Notes under the pieces: generated by a model | Told to the model about the DNA's origin: nothing | The model's database searches: none | The model's input: the letters and a program-made list of their open reading frames with translations, nothing else | Shown here: positions 2,696 through 47,529 of the stretch, in pieces | Numbering within the stretch: position 1 is the stretch's first letter | How the letters are laid out: each line of letters begins with the position of its first letter | Translations under genes and position numbers: made by a program | From: Parcubacteria group bacterium LiPW_30 | Lineage (GTDB): Bacteria > Patescibacteriota > Minisyncoccia > Phycocordibacterales > VMEP01 | Direction of reading: 5' to 3' | DNA: 64,000 nt | Assembly: GCA_007375595.1 (NCBI GenBank) | Contig: VMEP01000001.1 | Coordinates: 178,816 to 242,815 of the forward strand

Positions 2696-2785
2696 GGCTG
2701 TCTCCTCTGCGAAATAGTTTAGAAAGAAGCTTTTAAATCTGCCTGTATTATTAGCATGATTTAAATAAAAAGTCAAGTTTTTCTT

Positions 2786-2879
2786 AATATCCGCCCCTAA
2801 AATGCGCGTATAATTTTCTGCTGAAAATTTACTATACTCGCCTCGCCAGGCTCCGTAATGCATTTTAGAGACGGATATT
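2786..2879 (-). repeat. Structured intergenic element, family A copy 1
   Basis: 18/20 bp inverted arms enclosing TAC-GGA-GCCT-GGCG-AGGC-GA-GTA and a CAGCAG-loop hairpin (minus strand). Confidence 0.75.
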
Positions 2880-2963
2880 GGTATTTAAAAGAAAAGAATC
2901 TTGTTACCCTTTAGCCTTTGGGCATCACTAATTTAAAAAATTTAGGTTTTCTAAAAAACTAGG

Positions 2964-3052
2964 ACTTTTCCTTTTTAAAAACATTACGGAGCGCTCGGCG
3001 CAAGTATAGAAAAATTCAGCAGAATTTTATCGTGTTTTTAAAAAGGAAAAGT
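2964..3052 (+). repeat. Structured intergenic element, family A copy 2
   Basis: 20 bp perfect inverted arms enclosing TAC-GGA-GCGC-TCG-GCGC-AA-GTA and AAAATTC-AGCA-GAATTTT. Confidence 0.75.
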
Positions 3053-3103
3053 AAAAAATAAACACCCTTTAGTTTAAAGACAAAATAAAGTATTATTTGA
3101 GGA

Positions 3104-4804
3104 ATGCAAGAATTTGATGATAAAAAACAAGACGACCGTTTATCTTTTTTACGAAAGAAAGAAGAGGAGGATCTTATAAAAATACTATCTGACAAATATG
3201 GGATACCTTACATAGACCTCTCTACTGTTTCAATTGAAGGCGATGCTCTTAAAATAATCTCTGAAGAAAAAGCTCGAGCAGCTGAAATTGCACCATTCCA
3301 GTTAATAAACAAAAAGGCCTTTATTGCTGTTCGCTCCCCTGATCGCAATGACACAAAAATAGCTTTGGAGGAAATTTCTTCAAAAGGATATTTCCCAACT
3401 TTATTTATCACCTCAACGGCAAGCCTAGAACGAGTTTGGGGGCGCTATAAAGAAGTTTCTTTTGCTTCTGAGTCAAAATCTGGACTTCTTGATGTTTCTG
3501 CTGAATTTCTAAACGAAGCATTTGAGAAAATAAAAACAATTCCCGACATAACCAATATGGTTAATGATGTTTTAAGCAAAACTGGTGGACACAAAATATC
3601 GGTGATGTTGGAAATTCTTCTTGCGGGATCAGTTGCTGTTGGAGCATCCGATATTCATATAGAACCAGAGGATGAAAATGTTCATATTAGGGCACGTCTT
3701 GATGGTGTTCTTGAAAACCTTCTCACTATAAACTATGAAACCTACAAACTTCTTTCTTCTAGAATTAAACTACTTTCTGGACTAAAACTAAATGTTAAAG
3801 CTTCTGCTCAAGACGGACGATTCAGTATCAAATTAAACGAAAAAGAAATTGAAATACGTTCTTCTGTTATTCCGGGAGCATATGGGGAATCTTTTGTTAT
3901 GCGTGTTTTAAACCCAGAAAATATTGCTGTCCCATTTGAAGAGTTGGGTGTGAATAAATACCTTTTTGAAATTATTGAGAAAGAACTAAAACGCCCTAAT
4001 GGAATTATCTTAACCACCGGACCAACCGGCTCCGGAAAGACAACAACCCTCTATGCTTTTTTGCGTAAAATTTATTCTCCTGGAAACAAGATGATTACCA
4101 TTGAAGATCCGATTGAGTATCACTTAGAAGGAATCACTCAAACTCAAACAAACGAAGAGAAGGGTTATACCTTCTTGGAAGGGTTGAGGTCAGCCTTGCG
4201 CCAAGATCCAGACGTAATAATGGTTGGTGAAATTCGAGACACCGAAACAGCAAAAATTGCTATTAACTCCGCACTAACAGGACACTTAGTTTTTTCAACA
4301 CTACACACAAACACCGCAGCTGGTGCTATTCCAAGACTAATAGACCTAGGGGTTGATGCTAAAATAATCAGCTCTGCTCTTAATGTCTCCCTTGCTCAAC
4401 GTTTAGCTCGCAAACTTTGTTCTTCTTGTAAAAAAGAATCTCCTGCCACAGACGACGAAAAAAGAATTTTAACTGCCGTTGTCGAGAGAATTAAGGAAGA
4501 GAAAAAGGAGTATGCATTAGAACCAATTGAGTCTCTTCTCCCTGTCACGAATCTTTTCCAACCAGTTGGTTGTGAAAAATGTAACAACACTGGGTTTAAG
4601 GGCCGTGTTGGTATTTACGAAGCAATCCTTACGGATGAAAACATAGAAAAAGCTATCACCGAAAACCCAACAGAGAGAGAATTGAAAAAAGCGAGTTTAT
4701 CGCAAAGGATTCTTGATTTACAAGAAGACGCTACTATTAAAATCATACAGGGAATAACCTCACTTTCAGAAGTTAGTCGTGTTGTCGATCTAGAGGAGGT
4801 CTAA
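3104..4804 (+). CDS. GspE/PilB-family secretion/pilus assembly ATPase
   Basis: ASDIHIEP, Walker A GPTGSGKTT, LRQDPDVIMVGEIRD, STLHTN, CxxC pairs. Confidence 0.95.
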   Translation: MQEFDDKKQDDRLSFLRKKEEEDLIKILSDKYGIPYIDLSTVSIEGDALKIISEEKARAAEIAPFQLINKKAFIAVRSPDRNDTKIALEEISSKGYFPTLFITSTASLERVWGRYKEVSFASESKSGLLDVSAEFLNEAFEKIKTIPDITNMVNDVLSKTGGHKISVMLEILLAGSVAVGASDIHIEPEDENVHIRARLDGVLENLLTINYETYKLLSSRIKLLSGLKLNVKASAQDGRFSIKLNEKEIEIRSSVIPGAYGESFVMRVLNPENIAVPFEELGVNKYLFEIIEKELKRPNGIILTTGPTGSGKTTTLYAFLRKIYSPGNKMITIEDPIEYHLEGITQTQTNEEKGYTFLEGLRSALRQDPDVIMVGEIRDTETAKIAINSALTGHLVFSTLHTNTAAGAIPRLIDLGVDAKIISSALNVSLAQRLARKLCSSCKKESPATDDEKRILTAVVERIKEEKKEYALEPIESLLPVTNLFQPVGCEKCNNTGFKGRVGIYEAILTDENIEKAITENPTERELKKASLSQRILDLQEDATIKIIQGITSLSEVSRVVDLEEV

Positions 4805-4829
4805 TTTTTTACCCAAAGTCTTGAAAAAC

Positions 4830-4858
4830 AAAAAAACACCGATAATTCGGTGTTTTTT
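4830..4858 (+). terminator. Intrinsic terminator
   Basis: AAAAAACACCGA/TCGGTGTTTTTT. Confidence 0.65.
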
Positions 4859-4872
4859 GGAGATAAGAGTAC

Positions 4873-5016
4873 AAACCTCTAAGTAATCCTTTCCGCAAAA
4901 GAGTGGAAAGGGAGAGAGTATCTGCAAGGATAGTCTCAGCAAACACGCAAGCGTGCAACCAAAAACGTCCTCCAAACCCCTCCGGCAAGACACTAGGTCT
5001 CATTACTTAGAGATTT
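4873..5016. other. Multi-hairpin structured intergenic element (candidate ncRNA)
   Basis: 14/15 bp terminal inverted repeat enclosing three hairpins. Confidence 0.4.
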
Positions 5017-5081
5017 CTGCCCTCATCTAGAAAAGTGCTATAATTAGCTACGTTTCAATAAACTATCATAGTTATTAAAAT

Positions 5082-6134
5082 ATGTCAATAGGAAAAAATC
5101 CCAACACAAAAAGTTCCCTAAAAACAGAGACGGGTAACAAGGAAGAGCGAGACGACTCATTTCTAGATCAAACCCTCCGACCTTCACGTTGGGATGAATA
5201 TATTGGCCAACAAAACATCAAAGAAAACCTAAGAATTCTTTTAACCGCAGCAAAAGAACGTAACCATCCACCAGAACATATTCTTTTTTATGGACCTCCA
5301 GGACTTGGGAAGACAACTCTTGCTTATTTAATTGCCAAAGAAACAGGGGCGCAAATTAAAGTGACTTCTGGTCCCGCGATTGAAAAAGTTGGTGACCTTG
5401 CTTCTATTCTTACCAACCTACTTCCTGGTGATATTCTTTTTATCGATGAAATTCATCGTTTAAATAAAACTATCGAAGAAGTTCTCTATCCTGCTATGGA
5501 ATCTGGCTCACTTGATATCATTATTGGCAAAGGACCTTCCGCTCGCACAATCCAACTTGAGCTCCCGGCTTTCACATTAGTCGCCGCAACCACTCGAATT
5601 GCTTTATTGTCTGCCCCACTTCGCTCTCGTTTCTCTGGAGGAACATTTCGCCTCGAGTTTTATAGCGAAGACGAGATTAAAAAAATTATTGACCGCTCGG
5701 CAAATATTTTGGGAACATCACTTGTAAAAGAAGCTTCTCAAGCAATCGCCAAAAGAAGTAGATTTACTCCGCGTATGGCAAATTATTTACTAAAACGCTG
5801 TCGCGACTTTGCCCAAGTCCACAAAAAATCACTTTCGGAAGAGATAGTTAGTGATGCCTTAAAACTTCTTGGAGTAGATGACCTCGGTCTTTCTTTTTCC
5901 GACCGCCAAATACTTAACGTAATTATTGATAAGTTTAGGGGAGGACCTGTTGGCTTAGGGACAATCGCTGCGGCAACTGGTGAGGAAGAAGCAACAATTG
6001 AAGAAGTCATCGAGCCGTATTTAATTCAACTAGGACTTCTTGAGCGTACTACGAGAGGTCGCGTGGCAACGCCCCGTGCCTACGAACATCTTGGTTTTAA
6101 AATGCCATCAGATATACAAGAAAAACTCATCTAG
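5082..6134 (+). CDS. ruvB: Holliday junction branch migration ATPase RuvB
   Basis: LRPSRWDEYIGQ, GPPGLGKTT, FIDEIHRL, GGPVGL, EPYLIQ. Confidence 0.97.
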   Translation: MSIGKNPNTKSSLKTETGNKEERDDSFLDQTLRPSRWDEYIGQQNIKENLRILLTAAKERNHPPEHILFYGPPGLGKTTLAYLIAKETGAQIKVTSGPAIEKVGDLASILTNLLPGDILFIDEIHRLNKTIEEVLYPAMESGSLDIIIGKGPSARTIQLELPAFTLVAATTRIALLSAPLRSRFSGGTFRLEFYSEDEIKKIIDRSANILGTSLVKEASQAIAKRSRFTPRMANYLLKRCRDFAQVHKKSLSEEIVSDALKLLGVDDLGLSFSDRQILNVIIDKFRGGPVGLGTIAAATGEEEATIEEVIEPYLIQLGLLERTTRGRVATPRAYEHLGFKMPSDIQEKLI

Positions 6135-6369
6135 TAGCTTTTAGGTCATAGCTGTTAGCTAATTAGAAAAACCGAGCTCAACCCCAGCCATATTTTTACA
6201 AAATAATTACTGGCGGGGCGCTTCGCCGTATGAGGATTGTCCTATTCGGACACGCACCCCGCGAGACAAAAATTTACCCAGTGGTATAGTGACATTATTA
6301 CAAAATATAACAGTAAAAATATAGCGGGGTGATGATTTTAATAGTCGTTTCACTCCTTAAAAATCAATC

Positions 6370-6900
6370 ATGTCTGGTCACTCAAAATGGTCTCAAATAA
6401 AAAGACAAAAAGGTAGCGAAGACGCAAAACGTAGTAAAGTTTTTGCGAAACTTGCTCGTGCAATATCCCAAGAATCAAAAAGGGTTAAAGGAGATATTAG
6501 CTCCCCTACTCTACGTGTGATGATTGATAAGGCAAAAAAAGAAAACATGCCTAAAGACACAATAGAGCGCGCCGTTAAAAAAGGAACGAGCGCCGATATG
6601 GGAGAATTATTTGAAGTTATGTATGAAGCTTATGGTCCTGGTGGTTCAGCAATACTTATCGAAGGATTAACCGACAGTAAAAACAGAAGCGCTGCTGAAA
6701 TTAAACATTTACTTTCTTTACACGACGCATCGTTTGCCTCACAAGGAGCTGCTGCTTGGGCTTTTAAAAAAGAAGGAGAGGAGTGGGTTCCACAAACAAC
6801 TGTTCCTCTTTCAGACGAGGATGGAAATAAACTTTCTGTCTTAATTGAAGAACTGGAAGAAAGAGATGACGTTCAGGGTGTTTATACTAACGGAAACTAG
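6370..6900 (+). CDS. yebC: YebC/PmpR family protein (shortened)
   Basis: MSGHSKWSQIKRQK, YEAYGPGG, DDVQGVYTN. Confidence 0.93.
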   Translation: MSGHSKWSQIKRQKGSEDAKRSKVFAKLARAISQESKRVKGDISSPTLRVMIDKAKKENMPKDTIERAVKKGTSADMGELFEVMYEAYGPGGSAILIEGLTDSKNRSAAEIKHLLSLHDASFASQGAAAWAFKKEGEEWVPQTTVPLSDEDGNKLSVLIEELEERDDVQGVYTNGN

Positions 6901-6912
6901 TATTATCTAATT

Positions 6913-7389
6913 ATGCGTATCATCGCGATTGATCCAGGTCTTGAGAGAGTTGGTATCGCCATACTAGACAAAGAGCGGGGTGGTAAAGAAACTCTTGTTT
7001 TTTCGGAATGTTTTAAAACAAAATCTTCTTTAACACTTTCAGAAAGACTCAACTTAATTGGAGTTCATTTAAACGAGATTATTTTGGAATACAAACCAGA
7101 GGCCCTCGCAATTGAATCTCTTTTTTTCACAACCAATCAAAAGACTGCAATGGTGGTATCTCAAGCTCGTGGAGTTATTATTTACGAAGGTGCTAAAAAT
7201 AATCTTCCCATCTATGAATATACCCCCCTTCAGATAAAAGTAGCTGTCACTGGATATGGAAAGGCCACAAAAACACAAGTTGATTCAATGGTTCAAAAAC
7301 TAATAATCATCTCTAAAAAGATAAAATCGGACGACGAAATGGACGCTGTTGCCATAGGCCTAACCTGTTTTGCCTGCATAAGAAGTTAA
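6913..7389 (+). CDS. ruvC: Crossover junction endodeoxyribonuclease RuvC
   Basis: IAIDPG, AIESLFF, QARGV, YTPLQIKVAVTGYGKATK, DDEMDA. Confidence 0.95.
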   Translation: MRIIAIDPGLERVGIAILDKERGGKETLVFSECFKTKSSLTLSERLNLIGVHLNEIILEYKPEALAIESLFFTTNQKTAMVVSQARGVIIYEGAKNNLPIYEYTPLQIKVAVTGYGKATKTQVDSMVQKLIIISKKIKSDDEMDAVAIGLTCFACIRS

Positions 7390-7414
7390 ACGAGGGTGGT
7401 CAAAATCAAACACG

Positions 7415-7503
7415 TCTTTTCTTTTAAAAAACCTTACGGAGCGCGACGAGCGCGAGTAGAGAAAAACCCAGCAGGGTTCTATCGTGTTTTTTAAAAGAAA
7501 AGA
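7415..7503 (+). repeat. Structured intergenic element, family A copy 3
   Basis: 18 bp inverted arms enclosing TAC-GGA-GCGC-GACGA-GCGC-GA-GTA and AACCC-AGCA-GGGTT. Confidence 0.75.
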
Positions 7504-7514
7504 TAAAAGACGCC

Positions 7515-7523
7515 TTATCCACA
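7515..7523 (+). promoter_or_regulatory. Perfect DnaA box
   Basis: TTATCCACA. Confidence 0.5.
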
Positions 7524-40731: not shown

Positions 40732-41655
40732 ATGACTCAAGATCTAAAGAGTTTAAAACAACAATTTCTTGAATATATTGAAATTGAACGTGGAAGAAGC
40801 TTAAAAACTGTTCGTAATTACGATGCTTATCTCGAGCGTTTTCTTACTCAAACAAACGCTAAATATCCAAAAGATATAACTGATGATTCCATAAGGGAAT
40901 TTCGTCTTTGGTTGAATAGACAAGAAGGTCGTCGCGAGCGTGGAATGAGTGCGGGAACGTTAAAAAAGAAAACCCAAAACTATTATTTGATTGCTTTACG
41001 TATTTTTCTTAAATATTTAATGAAAAGAGGTATCGAAGCTCTTTCCCCTGATCGTATTGAGCTTGCAAAGGTGGCAGAGAGGTCCCTTGATCTTATTTCT
41101 TTAGATGAATTAGAGCGATTACTTAAAGCTCCTGATGGCGAGGATTTAAAAAGCTTACGAGATAAGGCTATTTTAGAATTACTTTTCTCAACAGGGCTTC
41201 GTGTTTCGGAACTTTGCTCTCTTCCTCGTGATATTGATCTTCGCAAAGATGAATTTTCGGTACGAGGAAAAGGAGAAAAAGTACGGGTTGTCTTTCTTTC
41301 CGATTCAGCAAAAGAAGCAATTAAAAAATATTTAGCAAAGCGAGGAGATATGGAGGATGTTCTTTTTATTGGAACAGGAAGCGTTGGAAAAAAGAAAGGA
41401 GAAATAACACACCTAACGACCCGTTCGGTTGAAAGAATCGTTGCGCAATATGCAATTAAGGCCGGTATCTCAAAAAAAGTAACCCCACACGTTATCAGAC
41501 ACTCATTTGCCACAGACCTACTTGGTAATGGGGCAGATATTCGTTCTGTTCAAATGATGCTTGGGCATGCCAGTATTTCAACCACACAGATTTACACGCA
41601 CGTAACTGACAAGGCTCTCAGAGAAATACATAAGAAGTTCCACTCTAAAAAATAG
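40732..41655 (+). CDS. XerC/XerD-family tyrosine recombinase
   Basis: RDKAILELLFSTGLRVSEL, GKGEKVR, TPHVIRHSFAT, LGHASISTTQIY. Confidence 0.95.
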   Translation: MTQDLKSLKQQFLEYIEIERGRSLKTVRNYDAYLERFLTQTNAKYPKDITDDSIREFRLWLNRQEGRRERGMSAGTLKKKTQNYYLIALRIFLKYLMKRGIEALSPDRIELAKVAERSLDLISLDELERLLKAPDGEDLKSLRDKAILELLFSTGLRVSELCSLPRDIDLRKDEFSVRGKGEKVRVVFLSDSAKEAIKKYLAKRGDMEDVLFIGTGSVGKKKGEITHLTTRSVERIVAQYAIKAGISKKVTPHVIRHSFATDLLGNGADIRSVQMMLGHASISTTQIYTHVTDKALREIHKKFHSKK

Positions 41656-44528: not shown

Positions 44529-44600
44529 GCCCCCGTAGTGAAATGGATATCACGACAGTCTTCGAAACTGTTATTCCAGGTTCGAATCCTGGCAGGGGCA
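44529..44600 (+). tRNA. tRNA-Arg(UCG), CCA not encoded
   Basis: Cloverleaf; anticodon arm ACAGT-CTTCGAA-ACTGT; T arm CCAGG-TTCGAAT-CCTGG. Confidence 0.93.
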
Positions 44601-44725
44601 TATGAATATGCCCCTGCCAGGATTCGAAAGCCGGAGCGCGACGGTGCGAGGCGGGGCTGCGCAAAAATTCAGCAGAATTTTATGCGTAGCCGAATCACTT
44701 TGTTTATAAGTCGTGACCGAATCCT
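44601..44725 (+). repeat. tRNA-3'-associated structured element (Arg copy)
   Basis: Inverted copy of the tRNA 3' end (44607-44628), conserved core, ending GTGACCGAATCCT. Confidence 0.85.
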
Positions 44726-44775: not shown

Positions 44776-44846
44776 GCGGGTATGGTTTAGTGGTAGAACA
44801 CGTCCTTGCCAAGGATGAGACGGGAGTTCGATTCTCCCTACCCGCA
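44776..44846 (+). tRNA. tRNA-Gly(GCC), CCA not encoded
   Basis: GCGGGTA/TACCCGC acceptor stem; CGTCC-TTGCCAA-GGATG; GGGAG-TTCGATT-CTCCC. Confidence 0.95.
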
Positions 44847-44995
44847 CAAAATTAAAATAACCCGTCTTTAAGACGGGTTATTTTAATTTTTGCAGAGGGA
44901 GAATCGAAAGCCGGAGCGCGACGGTGCGAGGCGGGCTTAATTGCGATAAGTGAAACAATTGAGAGACGGAGGCTGACGAGCCGAGTTGGGGTCGC
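44847..44995 (+). repeat. tRNA-3'-associated structured element (Gly-GCC copy, 3'-truncated)
   Basis: Hairpin, partial inverted tRNA 3' end, and 99 bp identical to 47339-47437. Confidence 0.85.
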
Positions 44996-45204
44996 TAATA
45001 TTACGGACAATTTTTCACATAAATGAGCATATTTTGTAAAGAGTAATCTTATAAAAATAAGGCTAAAATAGGTCAAAAGTGGGGATAAGTCGGGGGACAA
45101 TGTTAATAAGAGACACTAAAATTGTCCAAGAAAAAGACCTTTAAATGCTCTAAAACGGCTTTAAATAAGGATATATTGTCTTTTTCCACAGAAACTGTTT
45201 ATAA

Positions 45205-45729: not shown

Positions 45730-45800
45730 CGGGGTGTAGTATAGAGGTAGTACGTCTGCTTTGGGAGCAGATAGCCCGAGTTCGATTCTCGGCACCCCGA
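45730..45800 (+). tRNA. tRNA-Pro(UGG), CCA not encoded
   Basis: CGGGGTG/CACCCCG acceptor stem; TCTGC-TTTGGGA-GCAGA; CCGAG-TTCGATT-CTCGG. Confidence 0.95.
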
Positions 45801-45956
45801 ATGTAGCGAAGCATAGTGAGGGTTGAGCGAATGAACTGCTTCATTCGCGTCCGGAATCGAAAGCCGGAGCATGTCGCTCTGCGACAGCGAGGCGGGGTCG
45901 CGAGTACTTATGAGCAAAGCGAATTGGTAACTCGTGACCGATTCTCGGCACCCCGA
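45801..45956 (+). repeat. tRNA-3'-associated structured element (Pro copy) with 18 bp direct repeat
   Basis: Conserved core; CGATTCTCGGCACCCCGA at 45939-45956 duplicates 45783-45800. Confidence 0.85.
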
Positions 45957-47223: not shown

Positions 47224-47294
47224 GCGGGATTAGTTAAATGGTATAACTCCAGTTTTCCAAACTGGTGTCGGGAGTTCGATTCTCCCATCCCGCA
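47224..47294 (+). tRNA. tRNA-Gly(UCC), CCA not encoded
   Basis: GCGGGAT/ATCCCGC acceptor stem; CCAGT-TTTCCAA-ACTGG; GGGAG-TTCGATT-CTCCC. Confidence 0.95.
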
Positions 47295-47473
47295 CTGAAT
47301 TTTAACAAAACTAACTAAGGTTAGTTTTGTTGCGGGATGGGAGAATCGAAAGCCGGAGCGCGACGGTGCGAGGCGGGCTTAATTGCGATAAGTGAAACAA
47401 TTGAGAGACGGAGGCTGACGAGCCGAGTTGGGGTCGCCGAAGCAAATTATCCGTGACCGATTCCCATCCCGCA
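47295..47473 (+). repeat. tRNA-3'-associated structured element (Gly-UCC copy, complete)
   Basis: Hairpin, perfect 20 bp inverted tRNA 3' end (47331-47350), core, and near-perfect direct copy (47458-47473). Confidence 0.88.
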
Positions 47474-47529
47474 CAAAAAAATAAAAAACCGCATTCATGC
47501 GGTCTTTTATTTTTAGAGATGAGTGAATG

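Follow-up and report, generated by a model that had tools for sequence, protein, structure and literature searches.

Three short repeats between genes of Parcubacteria group bacterium LiPW_30 raise the question of why intergenic DNA and the ends of transfer RNA (tRNA) genes should carry the same fold. The repeats lie in the 64,000-nucleotide stretch analysed here, called the window (G000:C7:178816-242815; G000 is the source genome, 781 kb with 39% GC), and had been picked out in an initial annotation made from the sequence alone. We distinguish an intergenic form, family A, from a gene-end (tRNA-type) form, the cassette; M1 is a hairpin with a GGA/GA internal loop and M2 a hairpin with an ANNA loop and a bulged A. 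Intergenic elements and tRNA cassettes share one covarying three-way-junction core: they are non-coding repeats with a conserved M1/M2 core and a copy-specific closing stem, and they fold on one strand. The new part is a junction rule, read from aligned gene ends, by which the cassettes appear to insert at G-N-N/C (the slash marks the junction) in tRNA, transfer-messenger RNA (tmRNA), topA and rplL ends, duplicating the gene tail. The family is real, mobile and target-complementary in design; its mobiliser is missing.

Two forms of one three-way junction

The three family A elements were located at 2786..2879 on the minus strand, at 2964..3052 on the plus strand, upstream of a type II/IV secretion ATPase gene (3104-4804), and at 7414..7504 on the plus strand, 3' of ruvC. 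As the initial annotation had described, each combines inverted arms (18-21 bp; 20 bp in the first element, where they enclose M1 and an M2 with AGCA loop and bulged A) with an NNC-GGA-stem-GA-GNN hairpin and a C-AGCA-G hairpin. All three fold as three-way junctions, with z-scores of -6.2, -7.5 and -7.3 against 200 dinucleotide shuffles. The junction of both forms consists of a closing stem, M1 and M2. The two hairpins named at the outset are therefore present, but their details had to be redrawn: M1 is built of 3 bp, GGA or GCA opposite GA, 4 bp and a loop that is mostly GNCG, and in M2 the bulged A is conserved and the A-N-N-A loop has C-G or T-A as its closing pair. A genome-wide descriptor for the GGA/GA hairpin gave 41 matches, above the background of 0-6 (mean 2.7) in 20 block-wise dinucleotide shuffles. 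In a search of Rfam 15, tRNAs alone scored above the gathering threshold and no family did so for the elements.

The proposed covariation of the stems was upheld in both forms. Stem positions were 95.9% paired among intergenic copies (53 copies of three genomes; of the 55 references, two were omitted), with 31 of 40 pairs compensatory, and 94.0% paired among 80 tRNA-type cores, with 21 of 30 compensatory; the copies are interrelated, so that these tallies are not independent events and are inflated by kinship. Pairing in both sets far exceeded shuffled and slid controls. In G000, a hidden Markov model found 31 intergenic copies with an intact right end and a covariance model at least 35. Arms differ between copies, as had been seen in the window: 58 intergenic copies carry 56 distinct left arms, yet these form near-perfect palindromes. 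Internal arm mismatches of this form comprise 22 G.T versus 5 A.C (p 0.0015), which indicates that a single strand folds.

The initial annotation had also suggested one genome-wide modular system. A 21-nt hairpin is indeed exact at window 3010 and, within the Arg cassette, at 44663, and occurs 6 times in the genome of G000. A covariance model built from tRNA-type cassettes alone recovered all three intergenic elements of the window (E 5e-10 to 5e-6), and one built from intergenic copies recovered the Arg cassette (E 3.5e-6). In addition, there are intergenic copies whose M1 loop encloses tRNA-type modules, both in G000 and, in the sister genome G001, at the window's own 2964 and 7414 sites. 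These findings bear out the suggestion.

Cassettes carry an arm complementary to their target gene

All cassettes described here from the window lie on the plus strand, directly behind a tRNA gene. The Arg cassette (44601..44698) follows tRNA-Arg(TCG) (44529..44600); its anti arm (44609-44628) complements the tRNA tail plus T54/T55 and is followed by M1 (44630-44652), M2 (44656-44690) and a short tail repeat from 44691. Behind tRNA-Pro(TGG) (45730..45800), the Pro cassette (45801..45956) ends in an 18-nt tail repeat (45939-45956) that starts from T-loop C56, and the cassette (47296..47474) of tRNA-Gly(TCC) (47224..47295) has a 20-nt anti arm, a compound core and a tail repeat at 47458-47474. 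That of tRNA-Gly(GCC) (44776..44847) is truncated: at 44848..45015 it runs through a spacer hairpin, anti arm, M1, an extra hairpin and a second M1, and ends before the tail repeat. The general order is host G-N-N, junction, gene tail, a spacer that forms a hairpin, anti arm, M1, GGG, M2 ending in G-A-C, junction, and a second tail copy, which in tRNA cassettes begins at C56. Cassettes measure 100-200 bp, contain no gene, and stand behind at least 23 of the 44 tRNA/tmRNA genes of G000 (the pattern skips some variants).

The anti arm complements the gene tail and the two host bases preceding the junction, and no further. It is cognate to its own target: over 105 rows, anti arms matched their own tRNA tail at 5.6 of 7 variable positions, compared to 3.7 after permutation (maximum 4.03 in 5000 permutations), and tail copies matched their own tRNA at 11.2 of 16 positions versus 6.7. 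A tally in which the anti arm followed the tRNA and not the repeat (129 versus 13) was discarded, since independent decay of the repeat yields an equal outcome.

Among the targets are the T-loops, D-loops and 3' ends of tRNA genes, tmRNA, and the final codons of topA and rplL; insertion leaves the targeted gene intact. The D-loops of Asn and Ser tRNAs carry a mirror form, with the complementary arm on the 3' side; the rplL and topA ends of G000 carry the same cassette design as the tRNA genes. Sixty-two of 80 GTDB loci adjoin a called tRNA or tmRNA on its 3' side. The same holds for 78 of 123 metagenome loci, where topA is the target in L380 and L427 and rplL in L378; in L365 the cassette sits at another protein-gene end, which we take by eye, rather than from a domain scan, to be ahcY-like. 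In L427 the arm fits the upstream gene copy and the displaced tail is a different allele, a comparison that suggests that the element arrived carrying its own tail. At the rplL end of G000 (L005:14790-15160), two tandem cassettes replaced the last codons, and the displaced tail encodes a slightly different C-terminus.

ARAGORN called a tRNA with a TTA anticodon (L009:12901-12974) and a tRNA-Ile(TAT) (L012:9767-9841); the first resembles tRNA-Lys(TTT), apparently with a shifted call.

The junction rule

In 117 of 128 non-redundant junctions, the two bases that come after the arm complement the host dinucleotide preceding the duplicated tail, and several of the 11 mismatching rows probably reflect the choice of a wrong upstream copy. 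Seven kinds of host dinucleotide occur among the matches (TT 95, CG 7, CA 5, CT 4, these in an internal module, GG 3, TG 2 and AG 1), in contrast to the fixed 4-5 nt target of IS200/IS605 elements; rows with a dinucleotide other than TT match in 22 of 33 cases. Pairing stops sharply thereafter. The third base pairs in merely 3 of 128 rows, and in 27 of the 33 non-TT rows it is a G, opposite A or G. Since the right end of the element, G-A-C, precedes the tail copy, G-N-N/C stands at both junctions. The junction search demanded C at +1; C was also nearly invariant there with a pattern that did not demand it. In an excised circle the two extra guide bases would face A-C and be unable to pair, so that pairing is possible with host sequence only. 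The rule is established for the gene-end form only; for the intergenic form, mobility and the shared core were shown.

Distribution and turnover between close relatives

The tRNA-type pattern was present in 50 of the 121 genomes surveyed in the order (a control pattern gave 1 match), the intergenic model in 61, and either form in 75. In a phylum-wide sample of 141 genomes, the tRNA-type model matched 9. Exact tRNA-type core matches, as judged from the best 80 of 89, came from records titled as Patescibacteria groups (Paceibacterota, Parcubacteria, Nomurabacteria and others) or as unnamed bacteria. Viral contigs, searched with three patterns, and phage and plasmid collections gave no element match.

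At the window sites, comparison with the sister genomes G001, G002 and G003 showed that the repeats are gained, lost and replaced between close relatives. The element behind ruvC is missing in G002 and G003, and G001 has a different compound copy there. Contigs of two sequencing runs carry 26 other bases in place of window 7389-7504; one of them, from run X12, differs from the window at 87 of 4362 bases and represents a roughly 98%-identical strain. This 'empty' allele may itself be a scar. The 2964 site holds other copies in sister genomes, one of them with a nested tRNA-type module, and the same promoters in G000, G001 and G003 are preceded by different subfamilies, by stacked copies of which the older is truncated, or by none. 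At topA, G001 has an empty site and G000 an occupied one, where 62 bp are duplicated up to the stop codon; no bridging joint was found in the contigs compared across this region.

Other structured regions were seen as well. Between ruvB and yebC (window 6135-6369) lies an element that is absent from G001-G003 and from the contigs of two runs, with similar ones in several genomes of other genera in the family. The interval between a pilus ATPase gene and ruvB (window 4870-5030) is structured and non-coding, has a conserved terminal stem, is kept across genus and family and gave no Rfam match; it resembles a conserved RNA gene. A promoter-headed structured non-coding region at L001:13800-14010, conserved in G001, has an M1/M2-like module at its end. 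At L239:1338-1429 (G078), adjacent to a GIY-YIG gene, a junction core occupies the loop of a palindrome that resembles a terminator and follows a ribosomal protein gene.

Family A copies ahead of promoters

The initial annotation had mentioned neither the target-complementary arm with its gene-tail duplication nor a second regularity, the position of intergenic copies relative to promoters. In G000, 26 of 31 intergenic copies face a same-sense gene in a crude set of open reading frames (ORFs); of the remaining five, three are followed by a short same-sense gene at a distance of 63-153 bp. The best sigma70-like score was 6.9 downstream versus 3.3 on the opposite side (p 2.6e-6), and 227 upstream windows free of elements scored 4.9 (p 2e-4). 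Most intergenic copies of the genus sit 7-15 bp upstream of a -35 box and share the sense of the promoter. In 17 of the 31 G000 copies this box was 38-46 bp away from the M2 loop, and it lay 5-16 bp from the arm end in 15/26, 10/21 and 4/8 copies of G000, G001 and G003, respectively, some of these sites being orthologous. Next to the first element of the window, for instance, a sigma70-like promoter on the minus strand (2747..2776) has its -35 box TTGACT at 2771-2776, 9 bp past the arm end, and is kept in sister genomes with another element or with none. Because empty alleles retain them, these promoters are native. The genes downstream include secG, secE, dnaK, frr, gatC and those for IF1, IF3, S1, S16, L31 and L33.

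A general promoter rule was rejected. The register is confined to G000, G001 and G003: 29 best matches elsewhere gave p 0.21, and 40 copies from six element-rich genomes gave p 0.33 with even gene contexts. Within the genus, repeated replacement just upstream of promoters may reflect transcription-linked access or recruitment by RNA polymerase.

A DnaA-box-like motif, TTATCCAC(A), often lies a few bases past the right arm, ahead of the promoter (window 7515-7523; L285, L286, L287, L291). A gene for a free RNA polymerase alpha-CTD (L004:11036-11560) is found immediately upstream of one family A copy; in G003, the secG promoter that follows this copy is without an element.

A probable guided movement of single-stranded DNA and its alternatives

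With a probability of roughly 0.55, we favor a non-autonomous mobile element that is moved as single-stranded DNA by an enzyme encoded elsewhere and uses its own complementary arm as target guide. Both junctions would be cleavage sites. Excision would join the host to the tail copy and release a circle; upon insertion, the anti arm would pair with the exposed sense-strand target and the strands would be swapped, comparable to HUH (Y1) transposases with their 4-nt guides. The intergenic form would be a sister family, and its two arms might correspond to the anti arm and the tail copy, which is the weaker part of the proposal. We hold only tentatively to a more specific version, a natural DNA-guided and re-targetable insertion in which the junction of ~60 nt would recruit a host or visiting enzyme, an interchangeable arm would base-pair across the insertion site, and arm and carried tail together would set the target.

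Several observations weigh against guided single-stranded movement. Universal tRNA TT accounts for 95 of the 128 junction rows, C at +1 was demanded and many rows are related. Anti-arm mismatches lack a G.T bias (35 G.T, 42 A.C). IS200/IS605 elements prefer the lagging-strand template; unlike them, neither form showed a replication-strand bias (19:12 for intergenic copies, 13:10 for cassettes). In the intergenic form neither cognate pairing of left and right flanks beyond the arms nor a guide in these flanks was found, and an upstream tail copy is weakly supported (7.0 versus 6.8, p 0.007, with kin not independent). No circle junction was seen in the assembled contigs. Finally, no enzyme could be tied to the elements. 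They occur in 0 of 31 Y1 loci and in 1 of 59 GIY-YIG loci, and clustering of 1326 ORFs near element loci, mostly syntenic housekeeping genes, revealed no recurrent mobile gene. Over the 121 genomes there was no association with Y1 or stand-alone GIY-YIG genes (Fisher p 0.18-1.0; Y1/RAYT 0.45 and 0.80), G017 and G106 are element-rich with neither, and G000 has no match to reverse transcriptase (RT), IS110, HNH or DUF559.

The strand that folds bears on whether the elements instead act as RNA, that is, as structured 3' trailers or leaders which are processed, self-cleave or splice via the anti arm like an intron guide and spread by occasional reverse transcription. In favor of this, it is the target gene's sense strand that folds at tRNA, tmRNA, topA and rplL sites on either replichore (13 leading and 10 lagging tRNA/tmRNA genes with cassettes), G.T wobbles and tandem G.A suit RNA too, and RT-like ORFs were found no more than 1.5 kb from two family A loci of other genomes. 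Loop types were counted in 232 regions. GNRA loops, which speak for RNA, are found 28 times on the sense versus 11 times on the antisense strand. However, c-GNA-g triloops on stems of at least 4 bp are likewise enriched (23 versus 4), as is GCGNAGC (44 versus 11), and cUUCGg is nearly absent, with a single case; GNA mini-hairpins are stable when made of DNA but not when made of RNA. On balance, the loop types lean modestly towards single-stranded DNA. Moreover, 11 of the 31 intergenic copies of G000 are found in divergent regions, upstream of the gene that they point to, no orientation rule held for this form in six other genomes, and with no RT in G000 and nothing above the Rfam gathering score, we consider an RNA mode of action unlikely.

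Could the repeats do without a dedicated enzyme? Template switching during replication might create arms and tail copies at hairpins, and natural transformation and gene conversion might spread them; binding of a host protein, for example at a promoter-upstream or chromosome-structuring site, would keep the core. Left arms that are nearly all distinct and still near-perfect palindromes call for arm-to-arm copying or strong selection, and the fixed position ahead of core-gene promoters in the genus, together with a mobiliser that was not found, fits this scheme. Template switching nevertheless leaves unexplained a single register, G-N-N/C with two extra pairs and a sharp stop at the third, at unrelated targets. 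Since close strains have empty sites and the 40 copies of six other genomes do not show the promoter register, a required host role is unlikely, and the scheme as a whole appears improbable.

The third alternative is very unlikely. In it, an Ssn-like nuclease with a single GIY-YIG domain would recognise the repeats as its cognate sites and nick single-stranded DNA next to the hairpin, and host repair would copy the element in. G000 has five stand-alone GIY-YIG genes (L004:6185-6568, L008:16311-16643, L012:5796-6077, L015:18063-18314 and L003:2598-2918), three of them directly upstream of cassette-bearing tRNA/tmRNA genes. A GIY-YIG gene also adjoins 2 of 123 metagenome element loci, and SsnA cleaves single-stranded DNA strand-specifically beside its hairpin repeat, as described in the consulted part of PMC11893778. 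The same part reports cognate repeats near 71% of Ssn genes, compared to the single GIY-YIG locus in 59 with an element here. None of 29 loci of relatives of the adjacent L356 protein has one, other hairpins flank the G000 genes, and neither linkage nor cross-genome correlation supports GIY-YIG as partner. One of the five genes precedes what we take by eye to be an RNase P-like RNA; at several of these loci, partial copies of the 5' end of the RNA gene are broken by other hairpins.

The least probable alternative is a tyrosine recombinase, either a host Xer-like enzyme (window 40732-41655) or a visiting integrase, that recombines the folded strand with the tail/anti-arm hairpin as a double-stranded target copy, as in integron attC or CTX-phage attP. 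In its support, a duplex identical to the target is indeed restored by the hairpin, the Arg cassette has a Phage_integrase gene at a distance of 2.9 kb, and tail duplication from the T-loop is the usual footprint of tRNA-targeting islands (PMC4383910, in the part consulted). Against it, G-N-N/C is all that targets have in common, which is not enough for core sites read by a protein, the additional two guide bases complement the host side and not the element side, and no copy contains an integrase gene or matches viral contigs, phages or plasmids.

Candidate enzymes

Besides the GIY-YIG genes, G000 contains three tyrosine recombinases and a single Y1 gene, which is located on a small contig. 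The initial annotation had pointed to RAYT or TnpA (Y1) genes, an idea that did not hold: Y1/RAYT showed neither linkage nor correlation, and the sole Y1 gene of G000 is flanked by other palindromes. No autonomous copy with tnpA between the same ends occurred among the element loci sampled. Three element loci contain ORFs that, named by eye, are presumably serine-recombinase-like. The mobiliser is not linked to the elements, and a host enzyme is possible.

In G038, near-identical family A copies lie inside a MITE (miniature inverted-repeat transposable element) whose ends match a 970-bp DDE insertion sequence (IS). Wrapped in these ends, the copies spread there as MITE cargo. The IS itself (L524:644-1610) encodes a 266-aa DDE transposase (PF13612), and its ends enclose many short hairpin cargos, family A included, in G038, G029, G050 and G110, with AT flanking the ends inside quasi-palindromic targets. 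As a general mobiliser this transposase was rejected, the query being unmatched in G000-G003 and G031 in a search run without a positive-control genome.

Relation to known systems

We compared the family to known mobile repeats, using the consulted parts of the papers cited. The closest parallel in mechanism is IS200/IS605, where hairpins are strand-specific, a stretch 5' of the hairpin foot base-pairs with the nucleotides that immediately precede the junction, and insertion is reversible and leaves the target whole; in IS608 these guides pair with the cleavage sites, and engineered longer pairing retargets the element to 12/17-nt sites (PMC5934647). Such guide pairing was found for the gene-end form only, in the 117 of 128 rows given above. 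In contrast to the fixed tetranucleotide of IS608, the guide here is long (about 8-20 nt) and target-specific, and the element is a three-way-junction core with a gene-tail copy, no lagging-strand bias and no tnpA found. REP, BIME and REPIN repeats with their RAYT are imperfect palindromes too; they occupy intergenic DNA in high copy number, have a conserved bulge, are active on one strand, form compound or stacked arrays and are served by an enzyme in trans, and the foot and bulge of REPs are related to the features used by IS608 (PMC8266576; PMC6006769). In the structural traits the present elements agree with these repeats. They differ in having no GTAG-type foot (none in any aligned copy; the bases before M1 vary with the target), no REPtron and no Y1 correlation, in their copy-specific arms, and in exact insertion into tRNA and gene ends that restores the tail.

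The Ssn-associated NTS/SRM repeats (Chenal et al. 2025, PMC11893778) are also oriented hairpin repeats of single-stranded DNA, and small GIY-YIG genes are common in the present genomes. SRMs, however, are single hairpins of ~30 nt that flank a nuclease gene, as far as the consulted part of that paper goes, whereas our element is a 60-190-nt junction rarely near GIY-YIG; beyond the loci counted above, no GTDB or model-found element locus had such a gene. With tRNA/tmRNA islands moved by tyrosine integrases (PMC4383910), the cassettes share a split gene that is restored and a displaced 3' fragment, here from the T-loop. They differ in having 100-200 bp without an integrase, an inverted target copy, and targets that extend to D-loops, tRNA 3' ends and protein-gene ends. 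DDE MITEs, too, are short, do not code for protein and have inverted ends. Nearly every copy in G000 has arms of its own, a fixed target duplication is not seen there and neither the G038 transposase nor its ends were found; shared terminal inverted repeats with a fixed target duplication are confined to the outer envelope in G038.

The elements thus belong to none of the REP, IS200/IS605, Ssn, MITE or integrase-island families. The 'REP/MITE-like' single-stranded motif of the initial annotation fits as a mode of working and fails as membership, there being no RAYT/Y1 link and, in G000, no fixed terminal repeat or target duplication. No description of the family was found in the literature searched, which left subscription journals outside its scope and whose supplements could list such repeats; GIY-YIG and tRNA-end elements go unmentioned in the consulted part of PMC3733652. 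As far as searched, the family is uncatalogued, and works like REP and IS200/IS605 single-strand elements with an unusual target-complementary design.

Implications

If the guide reading is true, these bacteria would possess a programmable single-stranded insertion chemistry that needs just G-N-N/C and a complementary arm, and its enzyme would be of value for genome engineering. It would be a natural counterpart of the extended-guide retargeting engineered into IS608, able to retarget from tRNA loops to protein-gene ends without breaking genes. The junction rule supplies exact substrates and cut positions for a biochemical hunt for the enzyme. The host genomes are among the smallest known, and in G000 the elements occupy the ends of at least 23 of 44 tRNA/tmRNA genes and about 30 intergenic sites, many of them before core-gene promoters. 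Turnover from strain to strain shapes gene ends and upstream DNA in these organisms, and assemblies break at these sites.

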